From the NCBI GenBank assembly GCA_031409655.1, contig JANNXQ010000104.1, positions 1-29,704 of the forward strand: a stretch of DNA of 29,704 bases, written 5' to 3'. Made by a program: the position numbers and the translations under genes. Source of the stretch: Chthoniobacteraceae bacterium (GTDB taxonomy: Bacteria > Verrucomicrobiota > Verrucomicrobiia > Chthoniobacterales > Chthoniobacteraceae). Shown piece after piece: positions 8,801-24,580 of this stretch; positions within the stretch are counted from its first letter, which is position 1; the number at the start of each line of letters is the position of its first letter. The notes below the pieces were generated by a model, which was not told where the DNA came from, did no database searches, and was given only the letters and a program-made list of their open reading frames with translations.

Positions 8801-9821
8801 CTCGAACAAACCGCTGACCGTCGAAGCCTGGGTCCTACCCGACGGCCCCAATGGCGTCATCGCCCAACACGGCGGCGGCGTCACCGGCTACGCGCTCGCT
8901 CTGGAGGAAGGCCGTCCTGGATTCTCCATCCGCGCGGATAAAGCGACGACCACCGTGCAAGCCCAGCGCGCGCTGGACCAAGGCTGGCACCACCTCGCCG
9001 GTGTGCTCACCGAAGACAAACGCCTCATCTTGTACGTCGATGGCCAGGTCGCCGCGGAGACGAAGGCGCCGAGCTTCGTCACTCGCAAACCGAATCAGGG
9101 TCTGAGCCTCGGCAGTGCCGGCGTGTCGGGCGTCAGCGACTACGGCAAGAACGCGCCCTACACCGGTCTGCTCGATCAATTCGCCCTCTTCGGTCGCGCG
9201 CTCACCCCGGCGGAAATCAATGAGCACGCGAGCGGCGCCAACTTCATCCAGCGCGGACTCGCCGCGATGGTTGCCTGCACCTTCGACAACGGCGACGCCC
9301 GCGACGACGCCGGCGGCACCCTGCTCGGCGCCGTGAGCGGAGCCGAGACCGGCAAAGGCAAACTCGGCGCCGCGCTCTGGTTCAAGAAACCCGGCGGCGC
9401 CCCGAGCGTCCTCGCCGATCCCGCGCAGAAAGGCGGCGCCCCCGCCGCGCCCGCTGGCAAAGCCGCCGGCAGCTTCGTCGAGCACCAGTGGACCGCTAAG
9501 AGCCCCGTCTTCGCCCGCGCCATGGCGATGGCGAAAGACACCATCTTCATCAGCGGCCCGCCCGACATGATCGACGAAGAATACGCCTTCGAGCGCATGG
9601 CGCAGAAAGACCCCGCGATCTACAAAGACCTCGCCGAGCAGGACGCCGCGCTCGACGGCAAAAAAGGCGGCAGCCTCCTCGCCGTGAACACCGCCAAAGG
9701 CGAAGTGAGCAGCGACGTGAAGCTCGACAGCCCGCCCGTCTGGGACGGCCTCGCCATCGCCCAAGGCCGCCTCTACGTCGCCAGCGTCGATGGCAAGGTG
9801 ACGTGCTACGGGAAGCCGTAG
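5856..9821 (+). CDS. Secreted multidomain protein: class I SAM-methyltransferase-like domain, PQQ-like (BamB-type) beta-propellers, inserted LamG domain
   Basis: Signal peptide ending TAHA-ADD; VVQLGIGDG, GLDTD, LPYIDNLVNLI, EVKRVLVPLG; blades ARDAFNGTILW, ALDANSGAVLW, AFDAATGKKLW, CLRATDGALVW; LamG motifs LTVEAWV, WHHLAGV, LYVDG, GLLDQFALFGRALT. Confidence 0.85.
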   Translation: MRPLPPLRSLALTLLICTAHAADDAASLLATSGVKGGIVVQLGIGDGSLTAALRANDSYQVQGLDTDAAKVAAAREAISAKGAYGPVSVDRFDGKTLPYIDNLVNLIVAEDLGGVPMEEVKRVLVPLGVALVKEGGAWKKTTKTWSDQLDEWTHYYYSAKGNAVSKDKQVGPPSRLQWVGSPRWSRHHDRMSSVSAQVTSAGRLYYIMDEGSRISILMPSKWNLIARDAFNGTILWKKPIEKWSEHMWPLKSGPTQLTRRLVADGDRIFTTLGIGEPISVVDGATGKVVRTFPETKGAEEILHVGGVIYTLVNPKEWAIADFAPKLQQDQKRIADEYEWDKQPRSLVALDANSGAVLWKKEGTKVAPITLSADEKRVVFYDGDQLVCLDGKTGVQKWASGPAPKRKLLEYNFGPRIVLTGETVLYAGGDGSQKGLDAESGKELWTAPHEKSGYRSPEDLLVANGLVWNAGTTQGNQTGEFIGRDPRTGEAKKQFSPDVPDGTYWFHHRCYIAKGTENFLIPSRTGIEYVDINKSHWDLNHWVRGACLYGVLPANGLTYAGPHNCACYPEAKLDGLNALSAATSPWPALPSDDQRLERGPAFSQPIEERAADAADWPTYRQNNARSGSNPQPLVADLGKAWEVQLSGPLSALTIADGRTFVSQVDAHTLHAFDAATGKKLWHFIAGARVDSPPTFAQGRVFFGGKDGFVYCLRATDGALVWRFQAAPNSRRHGAFEQIESAWPVHGSVLVENGTVNCVAGRSVFLDGGLRFLRLDAATGRKLAEVVYDDKDPETGGDFQDRHKTLQMPVGLNDILSSDGKMMYLRSQKILPDGNRIEIGPISANVAEQAGTQKGEGRHLFAPMGFLDDSWFHRSYWIYGKNFAGGHSGYFQAGKFTPEGRILVHDDKNVFGYSRMPQYYKWTTTMEHQLFSASIDAPNVDLKAIAANESGPKKRQAAKAGAKPAAAAQAAGASVRFDADKLDPSNKPLTVEAWVLPDGPNGVIAQHGGGVTGYALALEEGRPGFSIRADKATTTVQAQRALDQGWHHLAGVLTEDKRLILYVDGQVAAETKAPSFVTRKPNQGLSLGSAGVSGVSDYGKNAPYTGLLDQFALFGRALTPAEINEHASGANFIQRGLAAMVACTFDNGDARDDAGGTLLGAVSGAETGKGKLGAALWFKKPGGAPSVLADPAQKGGAPAAPAGKAAGSFVEHQWTAKSPVFARAMAMAKDTIFISGPPDMIDEEYAFERMAQKDPAIYKDLAEQDAALDGKKGGSLLAVNTAKGEVSSDVKLDSPPVWDGLAIAQGRLYVASVDGKVTCYGKP

Positions 9822-9884: not shown

Positions 9885-10406
9885 GTGGAAAAAATCTTCG
9901 CCGTCATCAAACAGATGGAAGCCGACGGCGTCATCGGTCGCTATGCCATCGGTGGGGCGATCGGTTCGATATTCTGGATCGAGCCCGTCACGACCAAGGA
10001 CGTGGACGTATTCGTCTCACTGCCGACGAGTCCGGGCGGTTCGCTCCTCACGCTGGGTCCGATCTACGAATATCTCGTGGCGCGAGGGTTTCAGCCGCAG
10101 GGCCAGCACGTCGTCATCGAAGGATGGGCCGTCGAATTCGTCCCGCCGGCAACGCCGCTCGTGGAGGAGGCGCTCGCCGAAGCCGTCGAGCGGGATGTCA
10201 ATGGCGTCGCCACGCGCGTCTTCACTGCCGAGCATCTCGCCGCCATCGCCCTCCAAGTCGGGCGCGCCCGGGACCACGACCGCGTCTCGCGTTTCCTGGA
10301 GCAGGACGCCTTGGACATCGCGCGGTTCGAGGCGATCCTCACGCGCCACGATCTGCTGGAAAAGTGGCGCGAGTTTCAGCAAAGATACTGCTCCGATCAG
10401 CCATGA
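9885..10406 (+). CDS. Nucleotidyltransferase-fold protein (Pol-beta superfamily), putative toxin-antitoxin component
   Basis: GTG start; YAIGGAIG...TTKDVDVFV matches the GG...TxDxD signature; C-terminal GRARDHDRV. Confidence 0.7.
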   Translation: MEKIFAVIKQMEADGVIGRYAIGGAIGSIFWIEPVTTKDVDVFVSLPTSPGGSLLTLGPIYEYLVARGFQPQGQHVVIEGWAVEFVPPATPLVEEALAEAVERDVNGVATRVFTAEHLAAIALQVGRARDHDRVSRFLEQDALDIARFEAILTRHDLLEKWREFQQRYCSDQP

Positions 10407-10579
10407 CCGACCTCATGCAAAGCATCCTCCAGGCAAAGCGCGCGCGGCGCAAAGAGCTGGCCGCGCTGCCCGTCGGCGAGAAGCTGCGACTGCTCGAAGA
10501 AATGATCGAAGCCACGCGATCGATCGCCCGCAGCCGGCCCCGAAAACCCGCGAAACCTGCCGCCAGCACGAAAGGCTGA
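10403..10579 (+). CDS. Small basic helical protein (58 aa), partner of the nucleotidyltransferase
   Basis: ATG overlaps the upstream TGA (ATGA 10403-10406); MTDLMQSILQAKRARRKELAALPVGEKLRLLEEMIEATRSIA; it is the 3' end of track ORF 10124..10579. Confidence 0.7.
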   Translation: MTDLMQSILQAKRARRKELAALPVGEKLRLLEEMIEATRSIARSRPRKPAKPAASTKG

Positions 10580-10706
10580 TCACCCGGCTGCGGCAAGTGA
10601 CATGCAATGCGAAGCAGCGCGGGAGCGCCATGCTCACGCGTACGACTACTGACCTATCACATTGTGCGCTTTGACGACCGACCGCGGATCGGAGCAACAA
10701 ACCGGC

Positions 10707-13529
10707 TCACGCCCGCCCAAGCCAGTCGTCCCAACTGACCCAACCTTGGTTCGCGTAGGTTTTCTGCGGCTCGGTAGGAATGTCGCGCGGACGCGGCGGC
10801 AAGGCGGGAAGTTTGCCCGAACTGAACAGCCTCCAGTCGCTCGGTTTGGATAGGCCGAGGGAACGTGCAAAGTCCCGGGCCGCGCGAAAGTCACGAGGCG
10901 TGACATTGCGATACGGCGTATTGCCAGTGGCAAGCCAGTCGCCCCAGCTGCTCCATCCTTCGCTTTGATAGACGCTGTCCGGTGCTGTGGGAATGTCCTC
11001 GGACCGCGGCGGCAAGCCGGGGATGCGTCCGGAGGTGTACTGCTTCCAAGCCCTTTGGCCGGAGAGTTTCAAGCTCCGCGCAAAAGCACGCGCATCCTCA
11101 AATGGAAGCCAGCGACGATTGAGTCTCGGTTCGTATCCCAGAAAATCCGGCCAGCTAACCCATTGTTCTCCATACATTTCGTGCGGTCGCGACGGGATGT
11201 TATCAGAGCGTTTGCCTCTACCCGGAAGTCTTCCGGCGCTGTAGAGCGACCAATCGTTCGGATTCTGGATGCCCAACGGGCGAATGATTTCGCGCGCTTC
11301 AACGTAGGGAAGAAAGGTCATCCCCCTTCGAGCAAAACCCTTTCTGCCTGTTCCGAAGAAGTCACCCCAACCTGTCCAGCCGCGTCCTGCATAGATCTGG
11401 TCGGGACTGCTCGGAATATCCGGCGGGCGAGGCGGCAATTCGGGCATCCGGCCCGCGCGCCACGCCTGCCATTCGTCCTGCCTCCTTAGTCCCAGCTCCT
11501 GCACGAACGCACGTGCAGTTTCGTAGGGTGCCCACGCGATTCTTGCGAGCTTCCCCCAGCACTGCAATTCGATGCCCTGCACGAACGTGTCCGCTTCCAC
11601 CTCCGCCGGGACAATCGCGCTCATGTCGAAGTTGAGCACGTGCCCGGAGCGCCGTGGCTGACCTCGCTGGATGGCGCGGAGTTCGTCGATGATGCGTTCG
11701 TCCTGCGATGCGAGCGCGCGGAGCACGGCGACGACGAAACCGAAGTGGGCGCTCTTCGCCGCGTCGTCGATGGAGGCGCCTTCGCGCACGACAAAGGGGA
11801 GGACGATGTACGCCTTGGTTTTGCCTTCGGCGCGGCGCATCGCGCGACCGGCGGCTTGCACGATGTCCACGGTGCTCGCCTTCGGGTCCACGAACATCAC
11901 GCAGTCGATGCCCGGCACGTCCACGCCTTCGGTGAGGCAGCGCGCATTCGTGACGAGCGAGGGCGGGCGCGCGGCGAAATCGCGCAGGATGGAATCGCGC
12001 TCGGTGCTGCGCATCGTGCCGGCGATGTGGAAGGAGCGGACGGCGGGTTGTTCGGGGAAGGCTTGATTGTACTCCTGCGAAAGCTGCTGGAAGTCGGCTG
12101 CGCGCCGGATGCTGGTGTGAAACGAAACTGCGCGAGTGACACCGAATTTTTCCACCGCGCGTCGGAGCGCGATGAGGCTGGCGAAGGCATTGGCCGTGAG
12201 CGCATCGAACTCGCCGCGGCTCGGCGTGATGAAGCGGCGCTCCTCGATCAGCTTGCGAACTTCACCTTCGCGCACGCCGATGGTGAGGATTTCGTAGTCG
12301 CAGAGAATCGGGGGCTCGCTCTCGAGCGCCGCCTTGAACGAGAGGAGATGAAACGTGGTGCCATAGAGCGTTGGGTCGTCCATCGAGACGACTTCGTCGG
12401 TGATGCCTTTGAAGCGGCGCTCTGTGGCAGTCATGAACAGGCGTCGGGCTATGGGCAGATGATCGTCGAACAACAGATGCGTAAATCGGCTGCGGCGCGT
12501 GCTGACGGTCTTGTGCGCTTCGTCGAAGACGGCGAGATCGCACCGCCAGTCGAGTGCCTTCGCGGCCTGCGCGAGTGAGGGCGAGCTTTGATAAGTCGTG
12601 AGGATGATTTCGCGCGCCGCGTTCATCTTTCGCATTTCGCCCATGATTCGCGCCGGATCGGTGACGCACGGGATGCCGAGATCGTGGACATGGGTGACGA
12701 GTTCATCGCGCTCCGCCTTGCCGGCCGACTCGTCGCTGCACACGCAAAGCCAGTTCACGGAGAGGCCGGCCGCGAGTGCTTCGCGCAGCCATACACTCAG
12801 CGTCTGGCCGAAGAGGAACAGACTCGGTACGGCGATGATGATGCGTCGCGCATTCAATGCGCCCGCCATCCACCAAGCCGTGAGAGTTTTGCCCGAACCA
12901 CACGGGCTGATAAACTTCCCACGGGACTCGCCAGCATCGACGAAATGCAGCACTGCGGCAGCCACGGCATCGTGCTGGTCACTGCGCGGTGTCTTTGCGA
13001 GTGGGATCTCCCGACGACCTGCGAGACGAGCGCGCAGGCGCGAGAAGAACTCCTCATCGAGGCTCGCCCAGAAGTCGGCCTTGCAGAAACCGACGCGGGC
13101 ATTGGCTTCCAGCAGGTGCGTCACGCGATCGGTCGTAGTGCAGACGAGGCCGTAAGCGAACCGCGCGGACACGCCGAAGGTGAGCGACATGAACGTGGCG
13201 AGTTCCTCGTGCTTGAGCGAACTGTCCCGTTCGCTCCGATACTTCGCCTGCACCGCCCAGTAGTCGCCCTCGAAGGTCTGCGCGACGATGTCGATGCCGT
13301 AGTCCCGCAGCGGGATTCCTAAATGTTCGCGCACTTCGAAGGGCACTCCCGATTGGAGCCACACTTTCTCCAATTTCGTCGCGTAGAGCGGATGCAGTTC
13401 GAGCGCGAGGGCGACCAGCAACTCGAAGACGTCCCCCTTTTCTCGCTCGGCGAGATCTCCCACCCGCTGCTGATAGTCCGCCCAAGATCGGCAAGTATTG
13501 AGAACGGATTCCGCGAGCATTGCCGGCAT
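10707..13529 (-). CDS. Mrr-type restriction endonuclease fused to SF2 (DEAH) helicase/ATPase, with four C-terminal Trp-rich repeats
   Basis: Nuclease EKGDVFE...DYGIDIV...WAVQAKY; helicase PCGSGKT, FDEAH, MTAT, LTEGVDVPGID, QAAGRAMR. Start uncertain (ATG at 13562, 13529 or 13520). Confidence 0.88.
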   Translation of the reverse strand: MPAMLAESVLNTCRSWADYQQRVGDLAEREKGDVFELLVALALELHPLYATKLEKVWLQSGVPFEVREHLGIPLRDYGIDIVAQTFEGDYWAVQAKYRSERDSSLKHEELATFMSLTFGVSARFAYGLVCTTTDRVTHLLEANARVGFCKADFWASLDEEFFSRLRARLAGRREIPLAKTPRSDQHDAVAAAVLHFVDAGESRGKFISPCGSGKTLTAWWMAGALNARRIIIAVPSLFLFGQTLSVWLREALAAGLSVNWLCVCSDESAGKAERDELVTHVHDLGIPCVTDPARIMGEMRKMNAAREIILTTYQSSPSLAQAAKALDWRCDLAVFDEAHKTVSTRRSRFTHLLFDDHLPIARRLFMTATERRFKGITDEVVSMDDPTLYGTTFHLLSFKAALESEPPILCDYEILTIGVREGEVRKLIEERRFITPSRGEFDALTANAFASLIALRRAVEKFGVTRAVSFHTSIRRAADFQQLSQEYNQAFPEQPAVRSFHIAGTMRSTERDSILRDFAARPPSLVTNARCLTEGVDVPGIDCVMFVDPKASTVDIVQAAGRAMRRAEGKTKAYIVLPFVVREGASIDDAAKSAHFGFVVAVLRALASQDERIIDELRAIQRGQPRRSGHVLNFDMSAIVPAEVEADTFVQGIELQCWGKLARIAWAPYETARAFVQELGLRRQDEWQAWRAGRMPELPPRPPDIPSSPDQIYAGRGWTGWGDFFGTGRKGFARRGMTFLPYVEAREIIRPLGIQNPNDWSLYSAGRLPGRGKRSDNIPSRPHEMYGEQWVSWPDFLGYEPRLNRRWLPFEDARAFARSLKLSGQRAWKQYTSGRIPGLPPRSEDIPTAPDSVYQSEGWSSWGDWLATGNTPYRNVTPRDFRAARDFARSLGLSKPSDWRLFSSGKLPALPPRPRDIPTEPQKTYANQGWVSWDDWLGRA
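10710..11532 (-). repeat. Four tandem ~60-70 aa protein repeats
   Basis: Consensus [YF]xxARx[FI]xxxLx[LI]xxxxxWxx[YWF]xxG[RK]xPxxxxRxx[DN]IPxxPxxxY...WxxWxD[FW][LF]; units begin PYETARAF, PYVEAREI, PFEDARAF, DFRAARDF. Confidence 0.9.
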
Positions 13530-13580
13530 GAATACGCCGCTCTTCCGCACCGTGGCAACCATCCCCGGATCGATCCCTCA

Positions 13581-13670
13581 CTTGGATGTGGAATCTTCGT
13601 CGAAATCATCGGTGCGCGACCTGGTCGCGTCTTCGCCTTCGAGCCGTATCTGGCGCTGTTTCGCGGGTGA
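13581..13670 (+). pseudogene. Probable 3' remnant of a Fic-family gene (C-terminal winged helix)
   Basis: Reads LGCGIFVEIIGARPGRVFAFEPYLALFRG*, resembling the GIxxEITGxxRxRVFxYxxYLxLF terminus recalled for Fic proteins; no matching upstream coding region. Confidence 0.45.
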
Positions 13671-13695
13671 GGCGCGAAGGTCGCGGCGGCGGCGC

Positions 13696-14073
13696 TTACT
13701 TCATCGAGTGCAGCCCGACCACATTGCCCTCGGTGTCGGTGACCAGCGCGATGAAGCCGTATTCGCCGATGGAGAATTTTTCTTTCATCACCGAGCCGCC
13801 GGCCTTCGTGACACGGGCAGCCTCCACGGCGCAGTCTTCGCACGAAAAATACACCAGCGTGCCGCCACCGCCGGACTTGCAACCGTCCATCTTCACGAGC
13901 GCGCCGGGCGCGCCGACGGTGGTCATGTCCATGGGGAAATTCCACATCTCGAGCGAGTCATCGGGCGCTTCGAGTTTCTCCAGTTTCCCGGCCAGGACCG
14001 TCTCATAGAAGGCCTTCGCCCGGTTCATGTCCTGCACATAAATTTCAAACCAGCCGACGGGATTTGTTTTCAT
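13696..14073 (-). CDS. VOC/glyoxalase-bleomycin resistance family protein
   Basis: NPVGWFEIYVQDMNRAKAFY, GTLVYFSCEDC, DTEGNVVGLHS; 125 aa. Confidence 0.92.
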   Translation of the reverse strand: MKTNPVGWFEIYVQDMNRAKAFYETVLAGKLEKLEAPDDSLEMWNFPMDMTTVGAPGALVKMDGCKSGGGGTLVYFSCEDCAVEAARVTKAGGSVMKEKFSIGEYGFIALVTDTEGNVVGLHSMK

Positions 14074-14193: not shown

Positions 14194-15219
14194 GTGAAAA
14201 CGATTCTTTCCTCCATCGCTGCCGCCCTGCTCCTGCTGGTCGGGGCGCAGGCCTGCTCCATCCCCGTCTTCCGCTACGCGCTGGATCGCTGGCCGGCGGA
14301 TCGCTTCGTCCTTGAGGTGTCGCCGAAAGACGGGAGTGACGAGCAGGTCGCGAAGTTCCTGCGCAATTTCACCGACAGCACGCCGCTCAATCTCACGCCC
14401 GTGCGATTGAAGGAAGACAGCGGATCGCGCCTCACCTTCCCACATCCCGAGCCGGGCTCCGCGCCCGCGTGGTCCGGCACGCTCGAGGCCACCGTGCTGG
14501 CGCAGATCGCAGACTCGCCAGCGCGGGCCGAGATCGTTCGCCGCACGCTCGCGGGTGAATCCGCGGTGTGGGTGCTCGTCGAGTCGGGGCGCAAAGACGA
14601 CGACGAACGCGCCGCCGCGACGATGGAGAAGCGCCTTCGTTATCTCGAGACCGCTTCCATCCTCCCGCCCATCGACCCGAGCGATCCCACGAGCAAACTC
14701 GGCCCTGGCCCGAAGCTTGGCGTGAAATTTTCACTCGTCCGCATCCGCGCGGATGATGCCGCCGAGCAGACTTTCGTGAAGATGCTCGCTGGTCCGAAGC
14801 CGGACGCAGCGCTGCAAGGTGGGCCGTGGTATTCCGTCGTCTTCGGACGCGGTCGGGCGCTTGGGGCCTGGCCAGCGGAGGGCTTCGGCGAGGAGCAGAT
14901 CGACGAAGTGTGCGGCTTCCTGCTCGGCGCGTGTTCGTGTGAAGTGAAGCGGATGAATCCCGGCTGGGACTTGCTCCTGCGCGCCGATTGGGACGCGGAA
15001 CTCGCCACCGCCGAACAGGCGCGCATCTCCGCCTCCGATGAGCCCGACGCTTTGCCCGCCGTCTCCGTGGTTCCCGAGACCGTGACCTTCGAGCCGCGCC
15101 CGGTGCCTCCACCATCCGCACCGGTTAATCAGCAACGCCTCACCCTCCGCCTGCTCGCCGCGAGCTTCGCGTTCGTGTTGCTGGCCTCCACGCTCGGGAA
15201 ACTTTTCGCGTCCCGATGA
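14194..15219 (+). CDS. Exported, C-terminally membrane-anchored protein of unknown function with Cys motifs
   Basis: GTG start; signal peptide ending AQA-CSIPVFRYALDRW; VFGRGRAL; CGFLLGACSCEVKRMNPGWDLL; Pro-rich linker and C-terminal hydrophobic helix; stop overlaps the next ATG. Confidence 0.75.
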   Translation: MKTILSSIAAALLLLVGAQACSIPVFRYALDRWPADRFVLEVSPKDGSDEQVAKFLRNFTDSTPLNLTPVRLKEDSGSRLTFPHPEPGSAPAWSGTLEATVLAQIADSPARAEIVRRTLAGESAVWVLVESGRKDDDERAAATMEKRLRYLETASILPPIDPSDPTSKLGPGPKLGVKFSLVRIRADDAAEQTFVKMLAGPKPDAALQGGPWYSVVFGRGRALGAWPAEGFGEEQIDEVCGFLLGACSCEVKRMNPGWDLLLRADWDAELATAEQARISASDEPDALPAVSVVPETVTFEPRPVPPPSAPVNQQRLTLRLLAASFAFVLLASTLGKLFASR

Positions 15220-16757
15220 AGCGCGCGCTTCTTCTCCTCCTCGCCGTCGCCATCTCCGGATGCGATCGCGGCTCGAATGAACCCGCGAAGGCAACACTCA
15301 CCGTCTATTGCGCGGCAGGATTGAAGAATCCCGTCGAGGCCATCGCCGCGAAGTACCGCGAAGAACTCGGCGTCGAGGTGCAACTCCAATACGGCGGCAC
15401 TGGCACGCTCCTCTCCCAACTCCGCGTGGCGAAGCGTGGTGACCTTTTCATCGCCGCGGATGACGCGGGCATCGTCGATGCGCGGAAGTTCGACGCCATC
15501 CGCGAAGTCGTCCCGCTCGTGAAACAGCGCCCGGTGATCGCGGTGCGCGCAGGCAATCCGAAGAAGATCGCGACGCTCGCCGATCTCGCGCGCGACGACG
15601 TGAAGCTCGCGCTCGCAAATCCCGAAGCCGCCGCCATCGGACGCTCCGTGCGCACGGCGCTCGGAGAAAAATATGAGCCGCTCGCGAAACGCGCCGTGGT
15701 GCAAAAGCCGACCGTCACGGAGATCGCGAGCGATCTCAGTCTCGGCGCAGTGGACGCGGCGATCCTGTGGGACTCGACCGTCCCGCAATTCAAGGGACTT
15801 GAAGCGATCGAAGCGCCCGAGATTTCCTCGCTCGCGGAGGATGCCAGCGTCGCCGTGCTCACGGCGTGCCAGGACTCCGTCGCCGCGCTGCGCTTCGCGC
15901 GCTACCTCGCCGCGCCGGAGAAAGGCGCGGCCATCTTTCAGCAGCATGGCTTCAAGCCCGTCGGCGGCGACCAGTGGGCGGTGAAGCCGGAGATGATCCT
16001 CTACAGCGGCGGCGTGAATCGCCCCGCCGTCGAAAATCTCCTGCGCGATTTCTCCGATCGCGAAGGCGCGACCGTCACCACCGTCTTCAATGGCTGCGGG
16101 ATCCTCTGCGCCTCGATGAAAGCGATGGAGGACGCGAGCAACCCGAAGTTTCCCGACGCCTACTACGCCTGCGATCTGTGCTTCGTCCCACCGGTGGCGC
16201 AGCATTTCCCCGAGACCCAGATCCTCACGGAGACCGAGATCGGCATCGTGGTGAAAAAGGGCAACCCGCGTGGCATCCGCACCCTCGCCGGCCTCGCGCA
16301 ACCGGGCTTGAAAGTCGGCCTCTGCAACACTCAGCAAAGCACCCTCGGCTACATGACGCAGGGGATGCTGCGCGACTTGAAGATCGCCGACCTCGTGCGC
16401 GCGAATGTCGTCGTCGAAGTGCCGACCGCCGACTTCCTCGTGAACCAGATGCGGGCCGGCGCGCTCGACGCGGCCGTGGTCTATCGCGTGAATGCCGCAC
16501 CGCAAGCCGAGCACCTCGACTTCCTGGTGATCGACCATCCCGGCGCGAAAGCGGTGCAGCCCTTTAGCATCCGCGCGGACTCGCCGAACCGCCAACTCGC
16601 CGGACGCCTGCTCGCTTGCATGAAATTGAATCGCGCGAGTTTTGAGAACGCCGGCTTCTCCTGGCGCGGCGACGAGCCGGTGCTGCGCAGCGACAAGATC
16701 GAAGTCCCGCCGTGGCTGCGACCGGAAGGCACCGGCCCGAACGGCACGGCGAAATGA
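15216..16757 (+). CDS. modA: ModA-like oxyanion-binding lipoprotein with two tandem binding domains
   Basis: Lipobox AISG-C; domain 1 YCAAGL, YGGTGTL, GDLFIAAD, GNPKKI, ANPEAAAIG; domain 2 YSGGVN, FNGCGIL, KGNPRGI, GALDAAVVY; 513 aa, about twice a normal ModA. Confidence 0.8.
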   Translation: MKRALLLLLAVAISGCDRGSNEPAKATLTVYCAAGLKNPVEAIAAKYREELGVEVQLQYGGTGTLLSQLRVAKRGDLFIAADDAGIVDARKFDAIREVVPLVKQRPVIAVRAGNPKKIATLADLARDDVKLALANPEAAAIGRSVRTALGEKYEPLAKRAVVQKPTVTEIASDLSLGAVDAAILWDSTVPQFKGLEAIEAPEISSLAEDASVAVLTACQDSVAALRFARYLAAPEKGAAIFQQHGFKPVGGDQWAVKPEMILYSGGVNRPAVENLLRDFSDREGATVTTVFNGCGILCASMKAMEDASNPKFPDAYYACDLCFVPPVAQHFPETQILTETEIGIVVKKGNPRGIRTLAGLAQPGLKVGLCNTQQSTLGYMTQGMLRDLKIADLVRANVVVEVPTADFLVNQMRAGALDAAVVYRVNAAPQAEHLDFLVIDHPGAKAVQPFSIRADSPNRQLAGRLLACMKLNRASFENAGFSWRGDEPVLRSDKIEVPPWLRPEGTGPNGTAK

Positions 16758-16780
16758 GCGGCGGCGCGGGGGCGGAGTGT

Positions 16781-16941
16781 CGGGGAGCGCGCCCGTCTCG
16801 GGCGCTGGCGGCGGCGTCCCGCCGACGCGGACTTTTCCAAGGCGCCATGAAAGCTCCAAGCGTTTCCGACTTCAGAGCACTGCTGGAAAGTTCGTTCCGG
16901 CGGGACGCCGTAACCAGCGCCCGAGACGGGCGCGCTCCCCG
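16781..16941. repeat. REP/MITE-like palindromic element between modA and modB
   Basis: Perfect 28-bp inverted repeat 16781-16808 / 16914-16941, plus a 13-bp inner one 16812-16824 / 16898-16910; each outer arm has its own hairpin (GCGCCCG-TCT-CGGGCGC). Confidence 0.9.
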
Positions 16942-16944
16942 GAT

Positions 16945-17724
16945 ATGACCCGCCGCTTCGATCCGCTCTGGCTCATGCTCGGCGTCATCACCGGCGCGTA
17001 TCTGCTTTTCCTCCTCGCGATGCTCGGGGCGACCGCGGGGTACAGCTCTCCGCACGATCTGTGGCAGGCGCTCGGGAAGCGGGAGATCCGCTACGCCATC
17101 GGGCTGAGCCTCGCCACTTGCACGATCACCGCGGTACTCTCCCTGCTGCTGGCGGTGCCCGTCGGTTATTTGCTTTCACGCGGAAGATTTCGCGGTCGCG
17201 AGTGGCTGGATGCAGCGCTCGATATTCCCATCGTTCTGCCGCCGATGGTCGTCGGCCTGTGCCTGCTCATCTTTTTCCAGACCTCGATCGGCCACGCCAT
17301 CGAGCGCGTCATCCCTTTCACCTACACGATCGCCGGCGTGGTCCTCGCGCAATGCACCATCGGCGCCGCCTTTGCCGTGCGCACGATGCGCGGGACTTTC
17401 GATCACCTCTCGTCGCGACCGGAAGATGTGGCGATGACGCTGGGCTGCTCACGGGCGCGAGCGATCTGGCTCGTCACCCTGCCCGCGGCGCGGCGCGGGA
17501 TGTTTGCCGCGGCGAGCATCGCGTGGGCGCGCAGCCTGGGGGAATTTGGGCCGGTGCTCGTCTTCGCCGGCGCGACGCGGATGAAGACCGAGGTGCTGCC
17601 GACGACGGTGTGGCTCGAGCTGAGCGTCGGGAATCTCGAAGCCGCCGTCGTGGTGAGTCTGCTCATGGTCGCGCTCGCCGTGGTGGTGCTCGCGAGCGTG
17701 CGGCTGATGGGCGAGCGCATATGA
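16945..17724 (+). CDS. modB: ModB-like ABC permease, 259 aa
   Basis: DIPIVLPPMVVG, EDVAMTLG (EAA loop), WARSLGEFG; start at ATG 16945 just after the palindrome. Confidence 0.88.
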   Translation: MTRRFDPLWLMLGVITGAYLLFLLAMLGATAGYSSPHDLWQALGKREIRYAIGLSLATCTITAVLSLLLAVPVGYLLSRGRFRGREWLDAALDIPIVLPPMVVGLCLLIFFQTSIGHAIERVIPFTYTIAGVVLAQCTIGAAFAVRTMRGTFDHLSSRPEDVAMTLGCSRARAIWLVTLPAARRGMFAAASIAWARSLGEFGPVLVFAGATRMKTEVLPTTVWLELSVGNLEAAVVVSLLMVALAVVVLASVRLMGERI

Positions 17725-18365
17725 TCCGCCTCGACGACATCGCGTGGCGCGCGGGTGCGTTTGGCTTGGAGAAAGTGAGCTTCACCGTGCCGGCAGGGCG
17801 CTATGGGGTGCTTATGGGAAAGACGGGCGGCGGAAAAACTTCGCTGCTCGAAATCATCTGCGGCCTGCGTCAGCCGGATGCTGGTCGCGTGTGGCTCGCG
17901 GAGCGGGAGGTGACGCAGCTCGCGCCCGGCGATCGTGGCATCGGCTACGTCCCGCAGGACGGCGCACTCTTCCCGACCATGACGGTGCGCCAGCAGATCG
18001 GCTTTGCCCTGCGCCTGCGCCATCGGCCCACCGATGAAATCGCGCGCCGCGTCACCGAACTCGCCGCGCCGCTCGGCATCGCGCACCTACTCGACCGCAA
18101 ACCCGACGGCCTCTCCGGCGGCGAACGCCAGCGCGTCGCCCTCGGCCGCGCGCTCGCCGCAAAGCCGCAAGTCCTCCTCCTCGACGAGCCGCTCTCCGCG
18201 CTCGACGACGACACCCGCGAGCCACTCGCCGATCTCCTGCGCACGGTGCAGCGCGAGACCGCCGTGACCGTCCTGCACATCACCCACAATCGCAGCGAAG
18301 CCGCGCGCCTGGCGGACATCCTCCTCCGCCTCGAAGATGGCCGCATCCGCGAAGAGCAGCCATGA
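17721..18365 (+). CDS. modC: ModC-like ABC ATPase, 214 aa, no TOBE domain
   Basis: GKTGGGKT, GYVPQDGALFP, LSGGERQRVALGRAL, LLLDEP, HITH; ATGA overlaps with both neighbours. Confidence 0.88.
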   Translation: MIRLDDIAWRAGAFGLEKVSFTVPAGRYGVLMGKTGGGKTSLLEIICGLRQPDAGRVWLAEREVTQLAPGDRGIGYVPQDGALFPTMTVRQQIGFALRLRHRPTDEIARRVTELAAPLGIAHLLDRKPDGLSGGERQRVALGRALAAKPQVLLLDEPLSALDDDTREPLADLLRTVQRETAVTVLHITHNRSEAARLADILLRLEDGRIREEQP

Positions 18366-19114
18366 GCGATCTCCCCGCACTCACGCCCGAGGAACGCGCC
18401 ATCTACGAGTGGCAGATGTGGCTACCCGGCTTCGGTGAAAGCGCGCAGCGCAAACTGAAAGGCGCGAGCGTCCTCATCTCGCGCGTCGGCGGCATCGGCG
18501 GACTCGTCGCGGCTCAGCTCGCCGCCGCCGGCATCGGCAAACTCGTGCTCGCGATGGGCGGCAACGTGCAGGCGCGCGACCTCAACCGCCAGCTCCTGCA
18601 ATCTCACGACCGGATCGGGAAGCCGCGTCTGGACAGCATCCTCAGCCGCCTGCGCGATCTGAACCCGCGCACGGAACTCATCGGCGTCGCTGAAAACATC
18701 TCCGACACAAATGCCCCTGCCCTCGTCGCACAGGCCGACGTCGTCGTCGATGCCGCACCGCTTTTCGAGGAACGCTACGCGCTCAACCGCGCCGCCGTTG
18801 CACTCGGAAGGCCGATGGTCGAGTGCGCGATGTATGCGCTCGAAGCACAGCTCACCACCTTCCTCCCCGGTCGCACCGGCTGTTTCGCCTGCCTGCATCC
18901 CGAGGCTCCGCCGGAGTGGCGGCGCGAATTCCCGGTGCTCGGTGCGGTCTCGGGTGCCGTCGCGTGTCTCGGCGCGGTGGAAGTGGTGAAGCTCCTCACC
19001 GGTCTCGGCACCCCGCTCGCCGGCACGCTGCTCACCATGGATCTCGGCTCGATGCAGTTTCGGCGGCACCGCATCCGGCGGAGGAAAGACTGCCTCGTCT
19101 GCGGCAGCCACTGA
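18362..19114 (+). CDS. HesA/MoeB/ThiF family E1-like adenylating enzyme, HesA-type
   Basis: SRVGGIGG, DLNRQ, two CxxC (CFAC, CLVC), PEWRREFPVLGAVSG; GG replaces the usual DxD as in HesA; no rhodanese domain. Confidence 0.85.
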   Translation: MSDLPALTPEERAIYEWQMWLPGFGESAQRKLKGASVLISRVGGIGGLVAAQLAAAGIGKLVLAMGGNVQARDLNRQLLQSHDRIGKPRLDSILSRLRDLNPRTELIGVAENISDTNAPALVAQADVVVDAAPLFEERYALNRAAVALGRPMVECAMYALEAQLTTFLPGRTGCFACLHPEAPPEWRREFPVLGAVSGAVACLGAVEVVKLLTGLGTPLAGTLLTMDLGSMQFRRHRIRRRKDCLVCGSH

Positions 19115-19168: not shown

Positions 19169-19212
19169 AAAGTCCCTTGCGGCGTGTGCTACATTGCCTG
19201 CGTCGAAGCTTG

Positions 19213-20073
19213 ATGAGGTTTATCCAAACTCTTCTCGACGCCACCGGCCTCACGGCCCTGGCGGTGATAATCGCTTCTTCGGCGGAAGCCGCGCCGCCGC
19301 CGGGCTGGGAGATGGTCTTTCAGGACGAATTCGAAACCGGCTCTCTCGACCCGGAAAAGTGGAGCACGGAGATGGCCTTCGCAGGCACCCATGGGCCCAG
19401 GTATCACAATGAGTTCTACGTCAGCTACACGGTCGATGAGGACGTGATCGTGGGCGACGGGTTGCTCCGCTTGCGCACGGATCGGCGCACGGTGGAGGGG
19501 CGCGAAGGGCCCGGGATTTTCGACTACACGCAGGGGCTTGTCTCCTCGCACGACCGGTTTTCCTTCAAACATGGCTACATCGAGGCGCGGGCGAAATACC
19601 CGGGCGGAAAAGGGCTGTGGCCGTGTTTCTGGCTGATGCCGGAGCACCAGAGCTGGCCACCGGAATTTGACATCGCGGAGTACTACGGCGGGCAGCGGAA
19701 AATGCACCACGGCCTCGCCTACGGGACGATGCACGATCCGCAGTGGGACAGCACGGGGGACACGGAGACGGAGTTTGAAAATGTGTGGCACACCTACGCG
19801 CTCGAGTGGACGCCGGGCCGCGCGGTTTGGTACGTGGACGGGGTGGCGTGCAAAGTGGTGCAGGCCAGCTACGTGCCGGATTGCGCGATGTATGTGCTGC
19901 TGAGCAACAGCGTCAGCGCGTTGCGGGGGCCGTCGGGTTCGCCGGATGCGGCCACAGTGTTCCCGAACTACTTCGAGATCGACTACGTCCGCGTCTATCA
20001 ACCCGGTCCTCCAGCGCCCGTGGAGACGATTCTGGTCAAAGGCGAAGCCGTGCCGGCGGAAGTCGTGCCGTAA
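19213..20073 (+). CDS. Secreted glycoside hydrolase family 16
   Basis: Signal-like N-terminus; WEMVFQDEF, HGYIEARAK, GLWPCFWLM, catalytic EFDIAE (ExDxxE), WHTYALEW, IDYVRVYQ. Confidence 0.9.
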   Translation: MRFIQTLLDATGLTALAVIIASSAEAAPPPGWEMVFQDEFETGSLDPEKWSTEMAFAGTHGPRYHNEFYVSYTVDEDVIVGDGLLRLRTDRRTVEGREGPGIFDYTQGLVSSHDRFSFKHGYIEARAKYPGGKGLWPCFWLMPEHQSWPPEFDIAEYYGGQRKMHHGLAYGTMHDPQWDSTGDTETEFENVWHTYALEWTPGRAVWYVDGVACKVVQASYVPDCAMYVLLSNSVSALRGPSGSPDAATVFPNYFEIDYVRVYQPGPPAPVETILVKGEAVPAEVVP

Positions 20074-20087
20074 GTTGCGGCGGGCGC

Positions 20088-21515
20088 TCAGAGAGGCCGG
20101 CCGATGAGGTCATAGACCTGCGTGCCAGTGATCTCGACGTCGATGAATTCGCCGACCGGCGCTGGGCGGGAAAGCAGGATGCGGCCGTCGATATCGGGCG
20201 CATCGACGGCGCCGCGGGCGACCGTCGGCTTGTCCACCAGCGCGCGGATCGTCCGGCCGATCTGGGCGGCGCCGATCTCGTGGGCGATCTTCTGCTGGAG
20301 CTTCATCGCGCGCTTGTAGCGCTGCTGCTTCACCTTTTGCGTGAGCTGCCCGTCCATCTTCGCAGCGCGGGAGCCTTCCTCCTGCGAGTAGGTGAAGATG
20401 CCGAGCCGCTCGAAGCGGGTGCGCTCGATGAAACTGAGCAGGAACTCAAACTCCTCCTCCGTCTCGCCAGGAAAGCCGACGATGAAAGTGGTGCGGATGG
20501 CGATGCCGGGGACGCCGGCCCGGATGCGGGCGACGAGCGTCTCAATGTGCTCGCTGCTGGTCTCGCGACGCATGAGTTCGAGCATCCGTGGATGGATGTG
20601 CTGGAGCGGCATGTCGATGTAGCGCGCGACTTTTTTGCACGCGGCGAGGCAGGCGATGAGTTCGTCGCTCCAATGCGCGGGATGCGTGTAGAGCAGGCGG
20701 ATCCAGAACTCGCCCTCGATCTTCTCCAGCTCCCGGAGGAGATGCACCAGCGTGACGCCACGCTCGGGATCGACCTTCTGCCGCGGCCCCGCTTTCTCCG
20801 CCCACAGATCCATGCCGTAGTAGGTGGTGTCCTGGCTGATCAAGTTGATCTCCTTCACGCCTTCCGCGACGAGGCTGCGCACTTCGGCGACGACACTCTC
20901 GATCGTCCGCGAGCGGTGCTTTCCGCGCATCTGCGGAATGACGCAGAAGCTGCACGGGTGATTGCAGCCCTCGGCGATCTTCGTAAAGGCCGTGTGCGGG
21001 GGCGTGAGGCGGAAGCGCGGAGTGTCCCAATCGGGGATATAGACGGGCTTGCGCGAGACGAGGTTGAGCGGCTCCCATTTCTCGTCACCGAGGGTCGCTG
21101 GCAGATTGGTGGGCGTAGATTGGCCCGGCGAACGTGCCAGCACTTGCTCGATGATCGCAGCGGTTTCGGCCACTTGATCGAGGCCGATGAAGGCGTCCAC
21201 CTCGGGCAGTTCGCTGGCGAGATTTTTGGAAAAGCGCTGCGCCATGCAGCCGCTGACGATCAGCTTTTGGCCAGCGCGCTTCTTCAATCCGCGACCTTTG
21301 TGCGCTTCGAGGATGGCTTCGATGGACTCTTCCTTCGCCGAATCGATGAAGGCGCAGGTGTTCACGATGAGCACGTCGGCCTCGTCCGCGTCGCTGGTGA
21401 TCTCCATGCCGCGCGCGAGCACGCCACCGAGCATGATCTCCGCGTCCACGAGGTTCTTCGCGCAGCCGAGCGAGATCATGCCGATCTTTTTGGGAGGAGG
21501 AGGAGTCGTGGGCAT
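20088..21515 (-). CDS. rimO: Ribosomal protein S12 methylthiotransferase RimO
   Basis: ISLGCAKNLVDAE, VNTCAFIDSAKEES, CNHPCSFC, FIVGFPGET, DAPDIDG in the TRAM domain. Confidence 0.95.
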   Translation of the reverse strand: MPTTPPPPKKIGMISLGCAKNLVDAEIMLGGVLARGMEITSDADEADVLIVNTCAFIDSAKEESIEAILEAHKGRGLKKRAGQKLIVSGCMAQRFSKNLASELPEVDAFIGLDQVAETAAIIEQVLARSPGQSTPTNLPATLGDEKWEPLNLVSRKPVYIPDWDTPRFRLTPPHTAFTKIAEGCNHPCSFCVIPQMRGKHRSRTIESVVAEVRSLVAEGVKEINLISQDTTYYGMDLWAEKAGPRQKVDPERGVTLVHLLRELEKIEGEFWIRLLYTHPAHWSDELIACLAACKKVARYIDMPLQHIHPRMLELMRRETSSEHIETLVARIRAGVPGIAIRTTFIVGFPGETEEEFEFLLSFIERTRFERLGIFTYSQEEGSRAAKMDGQLTQKVKQQRYKRAMKLQQKIAHEIGAAQIGRTIRALVDKPTVARGAVDAPDIDGRILLSRPAPVGEFIDVEITGTQVYDLIGRPL

Positions 21516-21786
21516 GGCGGCGGAGTGGGGCGTGACTTGAGCCTCGAATGCGGGTCGCGTCCAGAACGGAACGGCACCGTCCTCCCCGGCGGATCAGACC
21601 CCGCACAGCACCGGAATGGCCTCGTTCACCCTCGAACCCAAAACTACCGTCCCGCCTGTGTTTCTCTCGTATGTGAGAACTACAGAGGAAAACGCCATCT
21701 TCGGGGCTTTTATTTTTGCAAAAATTGTTCTTTGCAAACTCTCAAAACTGAATATCTCTCAATTCCGCGACAACCAACCCTATCCT

Positions 21787-23184
21787 ATGGCCCGAATCCT
21801 AATCATCGACGACGACCCTCAAATGGTGGCAGTGATCTCCGAAATCTGCAAAGAACGGGGGCACCAAACCATCGCCTACAACTCCGGCCAGAAGGCGATC
21901 GAGTGTCTCGCGGCGCAGGCGCCGCAGCTCGTGATTACGGACCTGAAAATGGACAAGGTGGGCGGGCTCGACATCCTCCGCGAATGCCGCGAGTCGCTGC
22001 CGCAGACCCCGGTCATTTTGATCACGGCCTACAAGACCGTGGAGACCGCGCTGGAGGCGATGAAGCTCGGCGCTTACGACTACATCACGAAGCCGTTCAA
22101 AGTGGACGAGCTGCAGCTCACCATTCAGCGCGCCCTCGAGCATTCCGACGACAAGCGCCAGATCCGCAGCCTGCGCCAGGTGGTCAAGCGTGCCTCGAGC
22201 TTCGAGTCCATCATCGGTCTGAGCCCGCGGATGGACGACGTCTATCATCTTCTGAAAAAGGTCGCCGATACGGACTCGACGATCCTGATCCAGGGCGAGA
22301 GCGGCACTGGCAAGGAACTCGTCGCCCGCGCGCTGCATTTCAATTCCACGCGGCAGCATCAGCCCTTTGTTGCGATCAACTGCTCGGCGCTGCCGGAGAA
22401 TCTGCTGGAGTCCGAACTATTCGGCCACAAAAAGGGGTCCTTCACCGGCGCGGTACAGGACAAGATCGGGCTCTTCGAGGAAGCGGAAGGCGGCACCATT
22501 TTCCTCGATGAAGTGAACTCGATGGCGCAGCCGCTGCAGACAAAACTCCTGCGCGTGCTCCAGGAGCGCCAGCTCCGGCGCGTGGGCGAGACGAAGAGTC
22601 TGCCGATCAATGTGCGCGTCCTCGCGGCGACGAATGAATCCTTGCACGCGAAGATCAAGACGGGCGGCTTCCGCGAAGATCTCTACTACCGCCTCGCGGT
22701 CATCCCGATCGAGATGCCGCCGCTCCGCGAGCGCACCGAGGACATCCCCCTTCTGGTCAGTCACTTTCTGCAAAAGAACGCCGCGCAGACCAAGACCGAG
22801 GCGAAAAAAATCGAGCCGAAAGCCGTGGATCTGCTCACGCACTACCGCTGGCCGGGCAATGTGCGGGAACTCGAAAATGCCATCGAGCGGGCCTGCGCGC
22901 TCTGCGAACAAGGCGTGATCCAGCCCCAGGATCTGCCGCCGCACGTCGTCCGGCAGGCGTCTTCGCCCTCGGGGGAATACGAGAGTTCACTGCCGGTCGG
23001 GCAGACTCTGGATGCCTACATCGGCGAGCACGAACGCCGTTACATTGAAGAGACGATCAAATCGACCGGCGGCAGCCGGGAGAAGGCCGCGAAGATTCTG
23101 AAAGTCTCGATGGCGACGCTCTACCGAAAGCTCGACGTGAAAAAGAACGGCGCCGAGCCGAAGGAAAGGAAGAAGGCCAAGTAA
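21787..23184 (+). CDS. Sigma54-dependent response regulator (NtrC family: REC, AAA+, Fis-type HTH), 465 aa
   Basis: ILIIDDD, TDLKM, GESGTGKE, ESELFGHKKGSFTGA, FLDEV, FREDLYYRL, WPGNVRELEN; no adjacent histidine kinase; start ATG 21787. Confidence 0.95.
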   Translation: MARILIIDDDPQMVAVISEICKERGHQTIAYNSGQKAIECLAAQAPQLVITDLKMDKVGGLDILRECRESLPQTPVILITAYKTVETALEAMKLGAYDYITKPFKVDELQLTIQRALEHSDDKRQIRSLRQVVKRASSFESIIGLSPRMDDVYHLLKKVADTDSTILIQGESGTGKELVARALHFNSTRQHQPFVAINCSALPENLLESELFGHKKGSFTGAVQDKIGLFEEAEGGTIFLDEVNSMAQPLQTKLLRVLQERQLRRVGETKSLPINVRVLAATNESLHAKIKTGGFREDLYYRLAVIPIEMPPLRERTEDIPLLVSHFLQKNAAQTKTEAKKIEPKAVDLLTHYRWPGNVRELENAIERACALCEQGVIQPQDLPPHVVRQASSPSGEYESSLPVGQTLDAYIGEHERRYIEETIKSTGGSREKAAKILKVSMATLYRKLDVKKNGAEPKERKKAK

Positions 23185-23192
23185 GCGCTCCC

Positions 23193-23891
23193 ATGCGGCG
23201 CGTTCTCTTCGTCCAAAACGGCGACCAGGACGGGCCCGGCCTGCTGGCCGCTGCGCTCCGCGAATGCGGCGTCGAGCTGACGACCGTCCATGCGTGGCGA
23301 GGCGACCCGGTCCCGGAGACGCTGGCGGGCTTCGCCGGGCTCGCGATCGGCGGTGGCGCGATGAGTGCGTATGAGACGGCGGCGCATCCCTATCTCGGCC
23401 AGGAGCTGTCGCTGATCGCGGCTGCGCAGACGGAAAAAAAGCCGGTCCTCGGGATGTGTCTGGGCGCCCAGTTACTAGCCGTGGCGCTTGGCGGGCGGGT
23501 CTTTGCGCATTCATCCCGGGAGATCGGCCTGCAGGAGATCCGCTTTTCCGCGGCTGCCGCGGATGATCCGCTCTGGCGCGGCGACACCGCGCCGCTTCAT
23601 CCGGTCCACTGGCATGGCGATACTTTCACCCTGCCGCCCGGCGCGGAGTTGCTGGCGTCGTCCGCGCTCACGCCCCATCAAATTTTCCGCGCAGCCGGTT
23701 CGCTTTACGGATTTCAGTTCCACCTCGAGATCGATCTGCCGGCCCTCCGCGAGATGGTCACGAGCGACGAGGCTGCGCTAAGAGCCTGCGGCGTGGACCC
23801 GGCGGCCTTCGTCGCCGCGGGCGAAGTGCATTTGCCGGCGATCGAACCCGTGGCCCGCCGCGTCTTCGCGCGCTGGGCGGGCCTGCTCTGA
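23193..23891 (+). CDS. Class I glutamine amidotransferase (GMP synthase-like)
   Basis: GGGAMS, LGMCLGAQ (nucleophile Cys), HWHGDTF, QFHLE. Confidence 0.92.
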   Translation: MRRVLFVQNGDQDGPGLLAAALRECGVELTTVHAWRGDPVPETLAGFAGLAIGGGAMSAYETAAHPYLGQELSLIAAAQTEKKPVLGMCLGAQLLAVALGGRVFAHSSREIGLQEIRFSAAAADDPLWRGDTAPLHPVHWHGDTFTLPPGAELLASSALTPHQIFRAAGSLYGFQFHLEIDLPALREMVTSDEAALRACGVDPAAFVAAGEVHLPAIEPVARRVFARWAGLL

Positions 23892-23893
23892 AC

Positions 23894-23981
23894 CCGGGAG
23901 CGCCACCGTCCCGTGCGGCAATCGTGAACATGCGCAGAGCGCGTTGCTGTGGACTGCCGCACGGGACGGCGGCGCTCCCGG
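23894..23981. repeat. REP-like inverted repeat between convergent genes
   Basis: 27-bp arms 23894-23920 / 23955-23981 with one mismatch; begins GGGAGCGC..CCGTC like the element at 16781. Confidence 0.88.
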
Positions 23982-23985
23982 CGAC

Positions 23986-24210
23986 TTACGTCCGCTTGCC
24001 GAGGAATTTGAGCTGCGCAGCGTCTTGCTGGAGCACGTCGAGCTTTTGCATGGTCGCAGCCTGCTTCTCGATCTGCTCCTTGTTCTTCTGCCGGATGTCC
24101 TGGAGTTGCTGGAGCACGGTCTTCGGGATACCGGGAGCCTGGGAATGTAGCGGGGTGGCTGGACCGAGGACCAGGACCGCAGTGAGGAGCGAAAAGGTCA
24201 GTGTTTTCAT
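23986..24210 (-). CDS. Small secreted coiled-coil protein (74 aa)
   Basis: Signal peptide MKTLTFSLLTAVLVLGPATPLHS; heptad-like Gln/Lys-rich helix; 3 bp downstream of a similar gene. Confidence 0.75.
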   Translation of the reverse strand: MKTLTFSLLTAVLVLGPATPLHSQAPGIPKTVLQQLQDIRQKNKEQIEKQAATMQKLDVLQQDAAQLKFLGKRT

Positions 24211-24213
24211 GGC

Positions 24214-24465: not shown

Positions 24466-24523
24466 GGTTTCAAACGGTAGCGGAATCAATGCCGTGGCAC
24501 TTTGTTAAAATAAAGCGGAGCCG

Positions 24524-24539: not shown

Positions 24540-24580
24540 TGCGTGCGGAGGCGCATTCTCTAACCTATCCCACATCAACC

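Follow-up and report, generated by a model that had tools for sequence, protein, structure and literature searches.

What does a molybdate-type importer followed by a hesA gene serve where none of 24 scanned open reading frames (ORFs) belongs to the nif, moa/moe or sulfur-carrier families? The question is raised by contig JANNXQ010000104.1 of a Chthoniobacteraceae bacterium (Verrucomicrobiota; assembly GCA_031409655.1), the 29,704 nucleotides of which are called the window here. The original prediction, which had correctly noted this absence, described five genes as one operon: an exported cysteine protein without a recognised family (here X), a tandem ModA-like binding protein, a permease, an ATPase and a HesA-type protein, together importing and activating an oxyanion. 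We find that the unit starts earlier, at a gene for a large exported beta-propeller protein (here BIG), which that prediction had missed and which is the likely client of the operon. The five genes and BIG are a conserved six-gene unit in Verrucomicrobia. As to its role, we tentatively favour, at a little under an even chance, the reading that the operon is a metal-supply and maturation arm for BIG, with import of molybdenum or tungsten (Mo/W), help from HesA in sulfur ligation and hand-over by X. The parts of the unit in the window are as follows.

5856-9821, + strand: BIG, 1321 amino acids (aa), likely client of the operon (Pfam, predicted model, adjacency to X in relatives)
14194-15219, + strand: X, 341 aa, no family
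15216-16757, + strand: tandem ModA-like binding protein (gene 2), 513 aa, Pfam and NCBIfam profiles
16945-17724, + strand: ModB-like permease (gene 3), 259 aa, BPD_transp_1
17721-18365, + strand: ATP-binding cassette (ABC) ATPase (gene 4), 214 aa, ABC_tran without TOBE
18362-19114, + strand: HesA-subfamily E1-like protein (gene 5), 250 aa, ThiF

Conservation of the unit in relatives and metagenomes

The coordinates bear out the five reading frames and the three ATGA overlaps (at 15216, 17721 and 18362) that had been described as joining them. BIG and X are separated here by 4372 bases. Gene maps were drawn with our own ORF caller and clustering for 101 loci and the window, and members of the BIG family (1000-1500 aa) were found in 57 of these 102 sequences. 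The nearest named relatives are Chthoniobacteraceae metagenome-assembled genomes. X is carried by 12 of 60 relatives, and the order BIG-X-modAA-modB-modC-hesA, modAA being the tandem gene, is complete in six family genomes (L197, L198, L202-L205). Among 18 relative loci fetched, six are intact, one has the same insertion as the window, three are cut off by the end of a contig or have one side missing, and two have X with mod or hesA genes only; the remaining six are X paralogues (L207, L208, L210-L213), which adjoin a second type of BIG.

The metagenome set consisted of 80 loci selected with two conserved peptides of X, which collapse into 58 groups at 90%. BIG lies directly upstream of X in 31 of 45 informative groups, and modAA lies directly downstream in 39 of 54. 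BIG also adjoins ModA-like or permease genes in other arrangements (L062, L153, L154, L160, L162). The genes behind X in distant lineages encode an FtsX/LolE-type permease and a LolD-type ATPase, and X is often near BIG there, a TonB receptor, MoaD-like proteins ending in GG or a MoeB-rhodanese protein. The MoaD-like proteins ending in GG adjoin hesA in L117, L121, L140 and L148, and MoeB-rhodanese adjoins X in L059 and L060. The coupling of X to BIG is well supported: BIG is the tightest partner of X, with HesA being optional (8 of 18 X genomes).

Some loci show further variation. L059 (G080:C7) contains a canonical modA-modB-modC set divergent from moeB-X-FtsX pair-modAA-modB-modC-hesA, and the second copy of this operon in genome G080 lies on C33, some 20 kb away from moeA-moaC. 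In L131, L144 and L145, where modB and modC are absent, X-modAA is followed by a rhodanese-domain protein that has a lipoprotein-like N-terminus and an active-site-type cysteine. Two small ORFs (86 and 106 aa), presumably toxin-antitoxin-like, are located between X and modAA in L088, L089, L099 and L105.

Protein X

X has no Pfam or NCBIfam match, in agreement with the earlier statement that its family was unrecognised. The N-terminus holds a signal peptide ending in AxA directly before Cys21, and conservation is near complete at Cys21 (134 of 136), Cys247 (149 of 150), Cys249 (149 of 150) and Lys252 (150 of 150), which supports the view that the first gene encodes an exported cysteine protein. 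The motif CGFLLGACSC, to which attention had been drawn together with the N-terminal cysteine, stood in part: that cysteine and the two of CSC are kept, whereas the first cysteine of the motif (Cys240) is found in only 75 of 149. A hydrophobic C-terminal stretch or helix is present in 119 of 131 and is preceded by a proline-rich linker. The predicted model, with a predicted local distance difference test score (pLDDT) of 83.7, contains a thioredoxin-fold domain at residues 107-251 that aligns with thioredoxin over 101 residues (Z 10.5, root-mean-square deviation 2.6), and the best Foldseek matches, which are weak, are domains of the protein disulfide isomerase (PDI) family. X is thus predicted to be a membrane-anchored thioredoxin-fold protein with three near-invariant cysteines. 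In its modelled fold it resembles the thioredoxin and Dsb oxidoreductases, but it lacks their CxxC active site; no CxxC is conserved, the conserved cysteines being 21, 247 and 249.

The fold raises the alternative that X is a disulfide-forming or folding helper for a metal-free periplasmic BIG, itself an enzyme or binding protein, with the transporter importing the product of BIG and HesA as an accessory. The PDI-type matches, a co-occurrence of X with BIG that is tighter than with HesA or modB, and the lack of a Tat-like motif in BIG fit this idea. The placement of the cysteines at the mature N-terminus and in a CSC behind the thioredoxin domain, instead of in CxxC, does not, and the idea would not account for the recurring association with genes for ModA-like, HesA and MoaD-like proteins; we regard this explanation as improbable.

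The X family extends to 3286 clusters at 50% identity. Matches in the ESM Atlas are only to unnamed clusters, most commonly of Verrucomicrobiota and Planctomycetota, and X gave no match on plasmids. A scan of genome contigs with the single X protein returned two loci only. A second X paralogue in the source genome (L052:9419-10513, on G000:C183) is without the N-terminal cysteine, the CxC and system genes nearby; L064 (G295) is similar.

The exported protein BIG

BIG comprises a signal peptide, a methyltransferase-like domain, an 8-bladed propeller of the pyrroloquinoline quinone (PQQ) type, a second propeller and a LamG domain. Export is predicted to proceed via Sec; a motif resembling the twin-arginine translocation (Tat) signal was found in 0 of 28 BIG N-termini. 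Four invariant cysteines (509, 546, 563 and 565) all lie in the 8-bladed propeller and are kept in 39 of 39 motif segments from proteins with widely differing domain orders, a count that leaves out one gathered protein (L150) without a match to the pattern. The motif patterns are present in 120 of 120 homologues. Residues 22-600 were modelled (pLDDT 85.6), and the model has matches for the methyltransferase-like domain at Z of about 16 and for the 8-bladed propeller at Z up to 26.8.

The modelled fold agrees with that of PQQ-type 8-bladed propellers (BamB, YxaL, quinoprotein dehydrogenases and tetrathionate hydrolase, Z 19-27), from which BIG differs by its methyltransferase-like domain and its four invariant cysteines. 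The top Foldseek match of the propeller is tetrathionate hydrolase, which does not rise above other 8-bladed propellers. Relatives of BIG are labelled 'BamB' or 'PQQ-binding-like' in databases, and the ESM Atlas returns generic PQQ-repeat clusters. Membership in BamB or the PQQ-dependent dehydrogenases was ruled out, as the scores against TIGR03300 (66.7, cut-off 285.2) and TIGR03075 (30.9, cut-off 480.05) are far below the family cut-offs. The family is large, with 4635 matches among 8000 candidates, and sulfatases are frequent neighbours. One genome, G223 (L162-L166), contains at least five BIG paralogues, several of them adjoining sulfatases.

The ModABC-like transporter

Gene 2 has a lipoprotein-like N-terminus and two SBP_bac_11 stretches. 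It passes the modA model TIGR01256 (73.7, cut-off 62.5), on which a canonical cyanobacterial ModA reaches 235.7, and its best sequence matches among solved structures are ModA proteins. Three cysteines of the tandem protein are conserved: Cys32 (41 of 42), Cys294 (41 of 41) and Cys319 (41 of 42). In domain 2, Cys294 is at the place of ModA Ser39 and Cys319 at that of Ala58, which we take to be a pocket position in E. coli ModA. The permease scores 200.4 on TIGR01581 (cut-off 210.3), 163.6 on modB and 136.4 on the sulfate permease model, and the permeases of the system form one clade (support 99) inside the ModB group, apart from CysT/W (18 rows). The ATPase is without a TOBE domain and its best model is WtpC, below cut-off. 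Two other memberships were rejected: the sulfate systems (Sbp-CysP-CysTWA), by the score of gene 2 on TIGR00971 (27.1, cut-off 155.5) and the position of the permease clade, and WtpABC, by the score on the WtpA model (16.9, cut-off 355).

Compared with ModABC (E. coli ModA, TIGR01256; NifC-like permease, TIGR01581), the profile match, structure matches and ModB grouping are shared. This transporter differs in its two binding domains, which are either fused or encoded by paired genes, its changed ligand residues, conserved pocket cysteines and ATPase without TOBE, and in its retention by genomes that have no MoaC, MoeA or nif.

The HesA-subfamily protein

Sequence comparison assigns gene 5 to the HesA subfamily. 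The protein is 47-49% identical to cyanobacterial HesA encoded in a nif cluster and in a modA-modB-mop-modD module, and 35% to the MoeB-type E1 of the same genome, and its top plasmid matches are cyanobacterial HesA. In ThiF numbering it keeps Arg70, Gln71, Asp127 and the zinc cysteines, and the residue at the Ser66 position is Arg here and Ser in 10 of 11. The ThiF/MoeB residues considered (Arg11, Ser66, Arg70, Gln71, Lys83, Asp127 and Cys184) are those given in the accessible part of PMC12596934. With MoeB/MoaD and ThiF/ThiS the system HesA has in common the ThiF fold, Arg70, Gln71, Asp127 and the zinc cysteines, and some copies adjoin MoaD-like GG proteins or MoeB-rhodanese. Unlike MoeB and ThiF, it is without equivalents of Arg11, Lys83 and the crossover cysteine Cys184, and a separate canonical MoeB-type gene is present in the genome; the residue set of the MoeB/ThiF adenylyltransferases is thus kept only in part.

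HesA proteins encoded in the nif clusters of cyanobacteria, Paenibacillus and Frankia (47-49% identity) have likewise lost Lys83, the cysteine of the crossover loop and the acidic motif that follows strand 2. The system HesA differs from these by having no nitrogenase in 7 of 8 carriers, an invariant Trp for Arg11 (11 of 11) and linkage to X and BIG. HesA is tied to Mo elsewhere, in a nif cluster near modAB and in a modA-modB-mop-hesA-modD module. On a plasmid of Nostoc sp. C057 (L147) the neighbours of hesA are modA, modB, a pair of molybdopterin-binding genes of the mop type and modD, and the 16.7 kb mapped contain no nif gene. According to the accessible text of PMC6361004, a Paenibacillus hesA mutant lost nitrogenase activity, which was partly rescued by molybdate or cystine, kept nitrate reductase and was not complemented by moeB.

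Co-occurrence with molybdenum cofactor and nif genes

The genome profile covered 301 genomes of the phylum, all of them drafts (89-97% complete), with 4-9 candidates per genome scored for the counts of X, BIG, HesA and Cys-type ModA and with kin among the counted genomes that are not independent. X is present in 18 genomes. BIG (at least 65 bits) is present in 16, of which 15 have X, and three X genomes are without such a match. These counts use profile A6, which replaced a profile (A2) that was too narrow (8 of 301); A6 matches under 65 bits (23 of 39 genomes) were set aside as generic propellers. HesA-type proteins (above 300 bits) occur in 8 genomes, all with X, and the Cys-type ModA domain (above 230 bits) occurs in 9, of which 8 have X.

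The original prediction had called for a check of co-occurrence with nif and with genes for the molybdenum cofactor (Moco). The nifD/K family is over the cut-off in 1 of the 17 X genomes other than the source, and the source genome (94.9% complete) gave no match for nifD/K (PF00148); nitrogenase supply was therefore ruled out as the role of the operon. MoeA and MoaC are found in the same 6 of these 17 genomes, and 11 are without both. Seven of the 11 have the ModA-like protein of the system family with its permease (G089, G140, G250, G253, G269, G293 and G299), and among the others G262 has that binding protein alone and G295 a WtpA-like protein. The latter (L171:2938-3945) scores 179 bits, under the cut-off, in a genome without a MoaC, MoeA or nif match. 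No PF00384 match was found in the nine of the 11 genomes that were searched, including all seven with ModA-like protein and permease. G089 (7 contigs, 95% complete) carries X, the FtsX pair, tandem ModA, ModB, ModC, BIG, HesA and a MoaD-like gene.

As a control, 80 X-less genomes were picked by list number, of 110 intended; MoaC was found in 9 and a PF13531 match in 19. Eleven of the 71 MoaC-less controls match PF13531, with five full-length ModA-like proteins (all in nif genomes), five sulfate-binding proteins and one unrelated protein. Therefore, among the genomes searched, a ModA-like importer without Moco or nif occurs only in X carriers. In a PF12849 search TupA could not be told apart from phosphate-binding proteins, and its matches were not used. 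An absence of linkage between X and mod/hesA in other genomes, or carriers that all serve ordinary Moco or nitrogenase supply, had been named as grounds for abandoning the original prediction; the genes are linked across genomes and carriers without nif or Moco are present, thus neither situation was encountered. The earlier interpretation is partly supported overall.

A putative supply and maturation route for BIG

In our favoured reading, molybdate or tungstate would enter through the ModABC-like transporter and be brought into a sulfur-ligated form with the help of HesA, and X, membrane-anchored and with three cysteines, would pass the metal species to the four cysteines of BIG beyond the inner membrane. 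HesA may have as partners the MoaD-like, MoeB-rhodanese or rhodanese proteins that adjoin it in some loci, and the FtsX/LolD-type ABC pair beside X in distant lineages may move the product outwards. BIG may be a metalloenzyme acting on carbohydrate-type substrates, as suggested by the LamG domain and the frequent sulfatase neighbours. The metal, the chemistry and the direction of the relay are what we infer; the assignment to Mo draws indirectly on the scores against family models, the tree of the permeases, the profile of the control genomes and the Paenibacillus hesA mutant.

NosZ with NosDFY and NosL likewise combines an exported beta-propeller client, a membrane-anchored cysteine chaperone and an ABC system in one operon. 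The BIG system is unlike it in that BIG is without a Tat-like motif, the ligands would be Cys instead of His, and an importer is included. No sequence match to NosDFY/NosL-type parts was seen, no search having been aimed at Nos parts.

Known Mo enzymes use a pterin cofactor or the iron-molybdenum cofactor (FeMo-co), as stated in the accessible part of PMC6361004. A Mod-like importer with HesA in genomes without either route, tied to one exported family, points to a third metal sink. In its widest form, which we consider doubtful, BIG would found a large class of exported Mo/W enzymes with a Cys4-bound metal-sulfur centre that is neither pterin nor FeMo-co, with a dedicated assembly route and with HesA as a general Mo activator shared with nitrogenase assembly. 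That route would consist of the two-domain Cys-lined ModA, ModBC, HesA, a ubiquitin-like/rhodanese sulfur relay, an FtsX-type exporter and X as chaperone. If true, this would provide a nif-free setting to settle the function of HesA and give a function to thousands of BamB-labelled proteins. Should the ligand be something other than Mo, the unit would still be a maturation system without an earlier description, serving a family that is widespread in lineages degrading polysaccharides. The conserved system around X and BIG, two uncharacterised cysteine protein families, is to that extent undescribed: literature searches, with subscription papers mostly outside their coverage, gave no account of a BIG-X-mod-hesA unit, and the accessible part of PMC6147048 describes neither transporter-only genomes nor this unit, though its supplementary tables may list such genomes.

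Evidence against the proposed role and alternative ligands

In addition to the properties of the genome profile given above, several observations weigh against a Mo/W maturation role. The anion contacts of ModA are Ser12, Ser39, Ala125, Val152 and Tyr170 (accessible part of PMC8895017). At these five E. coli sites domain 1 has G/T/I/V/W and domain 2 G/C/L/A/Y, while most canonical ModA controls keep the set: Ser12 is replaced by Gly in both domains, Tyr170 by Trp in domain 1, as in sulfate-binding proteins, and Ser39 by Cys in domain 2. A quick tree of 43 rows, rooted at the midpoint, places both domains outside the 15-row canonical ModA clade (support 95). With the anion-binding residues altered, Mo/W is therefore only a putative substrate. 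HesA has Trp and Arg in place of ThiF Arg11 and Lys83 and no counterpart of Cys184, and the four cysteines of BIG could be two disulfides. Fewer than half of the metagenome groups (17 of 38) have modB after X and about a third (9 of 28) have hesA, and X and BIG occur without a family ModA being found in G227 and G278. The FtsX-type permease and MoaD-like protein of the system have no match in the source genome; without such a permease the path of a cytoplasmic product to X is unexplained here.

The same architecture might serve another ligand, either a different oxyanion or a sulfur species (thiosulfate, polythionate, organosulfate, selenite or vanadate), with X, HesA and their partners of the rhodanese or MoaD-like type relaying sulfur or another metal to BIG. 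Consistent with this are the Trp and Cys substitutions in the pocket, the rhodanese, MoaD-like and MoeB neighbours, the sulfatases that often adjoin BIG, tetrathionate hydrolase as the top match of the propeller, and the rescue of the hesA mutant by cystine as well (PMC6361004, accessible part). However, the score on sulfate-binding models is 27 bits, where the cut-off is 155.5, the permease clusters with ModB and not CysT/W, separate CysTWA-type systems are present in G227 and G269, and the hydrolase match does not exceed those of other 8-bladed propellers. We judge another ligand unlikely, while giving it appreciable weight.

The distribution of HesA also weighs against the proposed Mo/W maturation role. 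HesA is found in only 2 of the 11 X genomes without MoaC, MoeA and nif (G089 and G299) and in 6 of the 7 Moco-positive X genomes; 6 of 8 HesA carriers, source included, have Moco genes, and MoaC is present in 5 of 5 family genomes tested. With HesA and the Cys-type ModA occurring mostly alongside Moco, the HesA version of the system may depend on Moco or simply serve it. G001 (L151, G001:C4) has a Cys-type tandem ModA, its only strong ModA-like protein, with permease, ATPase and MoaC, and no X, BIG or HesA match. The source genome has moeA beside moaD and a moaE-like ORF, a separate MoeB-type E1 and PF00384 matches, some of which may be NuoG. Ordinary Moco enzymes are probably supplied by the transporter as well in this genome, because it has no other strong ModA-like protein.

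These data would also suit mod-hesA being a divergent but otherwise ordinary source of molybdate for Moco enzymes that is clustered with BIG-X by history, or BIG itself using a pterin cofactor. Against this, seven genomes keep a binding protein and permease without MoaC, MoeA, nif or PF00384, one of them, G089, has all six genes of the unit and a MoaD-like gene, and no such orphan ModA appears in the 71 MoaC-less controls. We give this explanation a low probability.

Other features of the window

Two further features lie within the span of the unit.

9885-14073, no strand assigned: inserted block between BIG and X, not a system part
16781-16941, no strand assigned: dispersed palindromic repeat, resembling repetitive extragenic palindromic or miniature inverted-repeat transposable elements, incidental

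A palindromic repeat had been described as filling the fourth gap of the operon. An inverted repeat is indeed present between genes 2 and 3 (arms 16781-16835 and 16887-16941, 87% complementary), but it is a dispersed element with 72 blastn matches on 34 contigs of the source genome, and in relatives the gap between modAA and modB is occupied by other DNA. For these two reasons the palindrome was ruled out as a component of the system. No Moco or tungsten riboswitch was matched in Rfam at gathering score in 17 loci, which returned one signal recognition particle RNA only.

Upstream of BIG, groEL and dnaK (1484-5559) are not conserved beside the system. The same holds for the downstream genes at 19177-28782: a GH16 hydrolase, a radical SAM methylthiotransferase-type gene, a sigma-54 regulator, rpoN, GT11 and a TPR protein. 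The insert between BIG and X, found in L001/L214 and missing from the six family loci, is common only to the closest relative seen. It contains a nucleotidyltransferase-like ORF (weak DUF2204), a glyoxalase and a 951-aa Mrr_cat_2/ResIII helicase of restriction type, which carries repeated C-terminal units.

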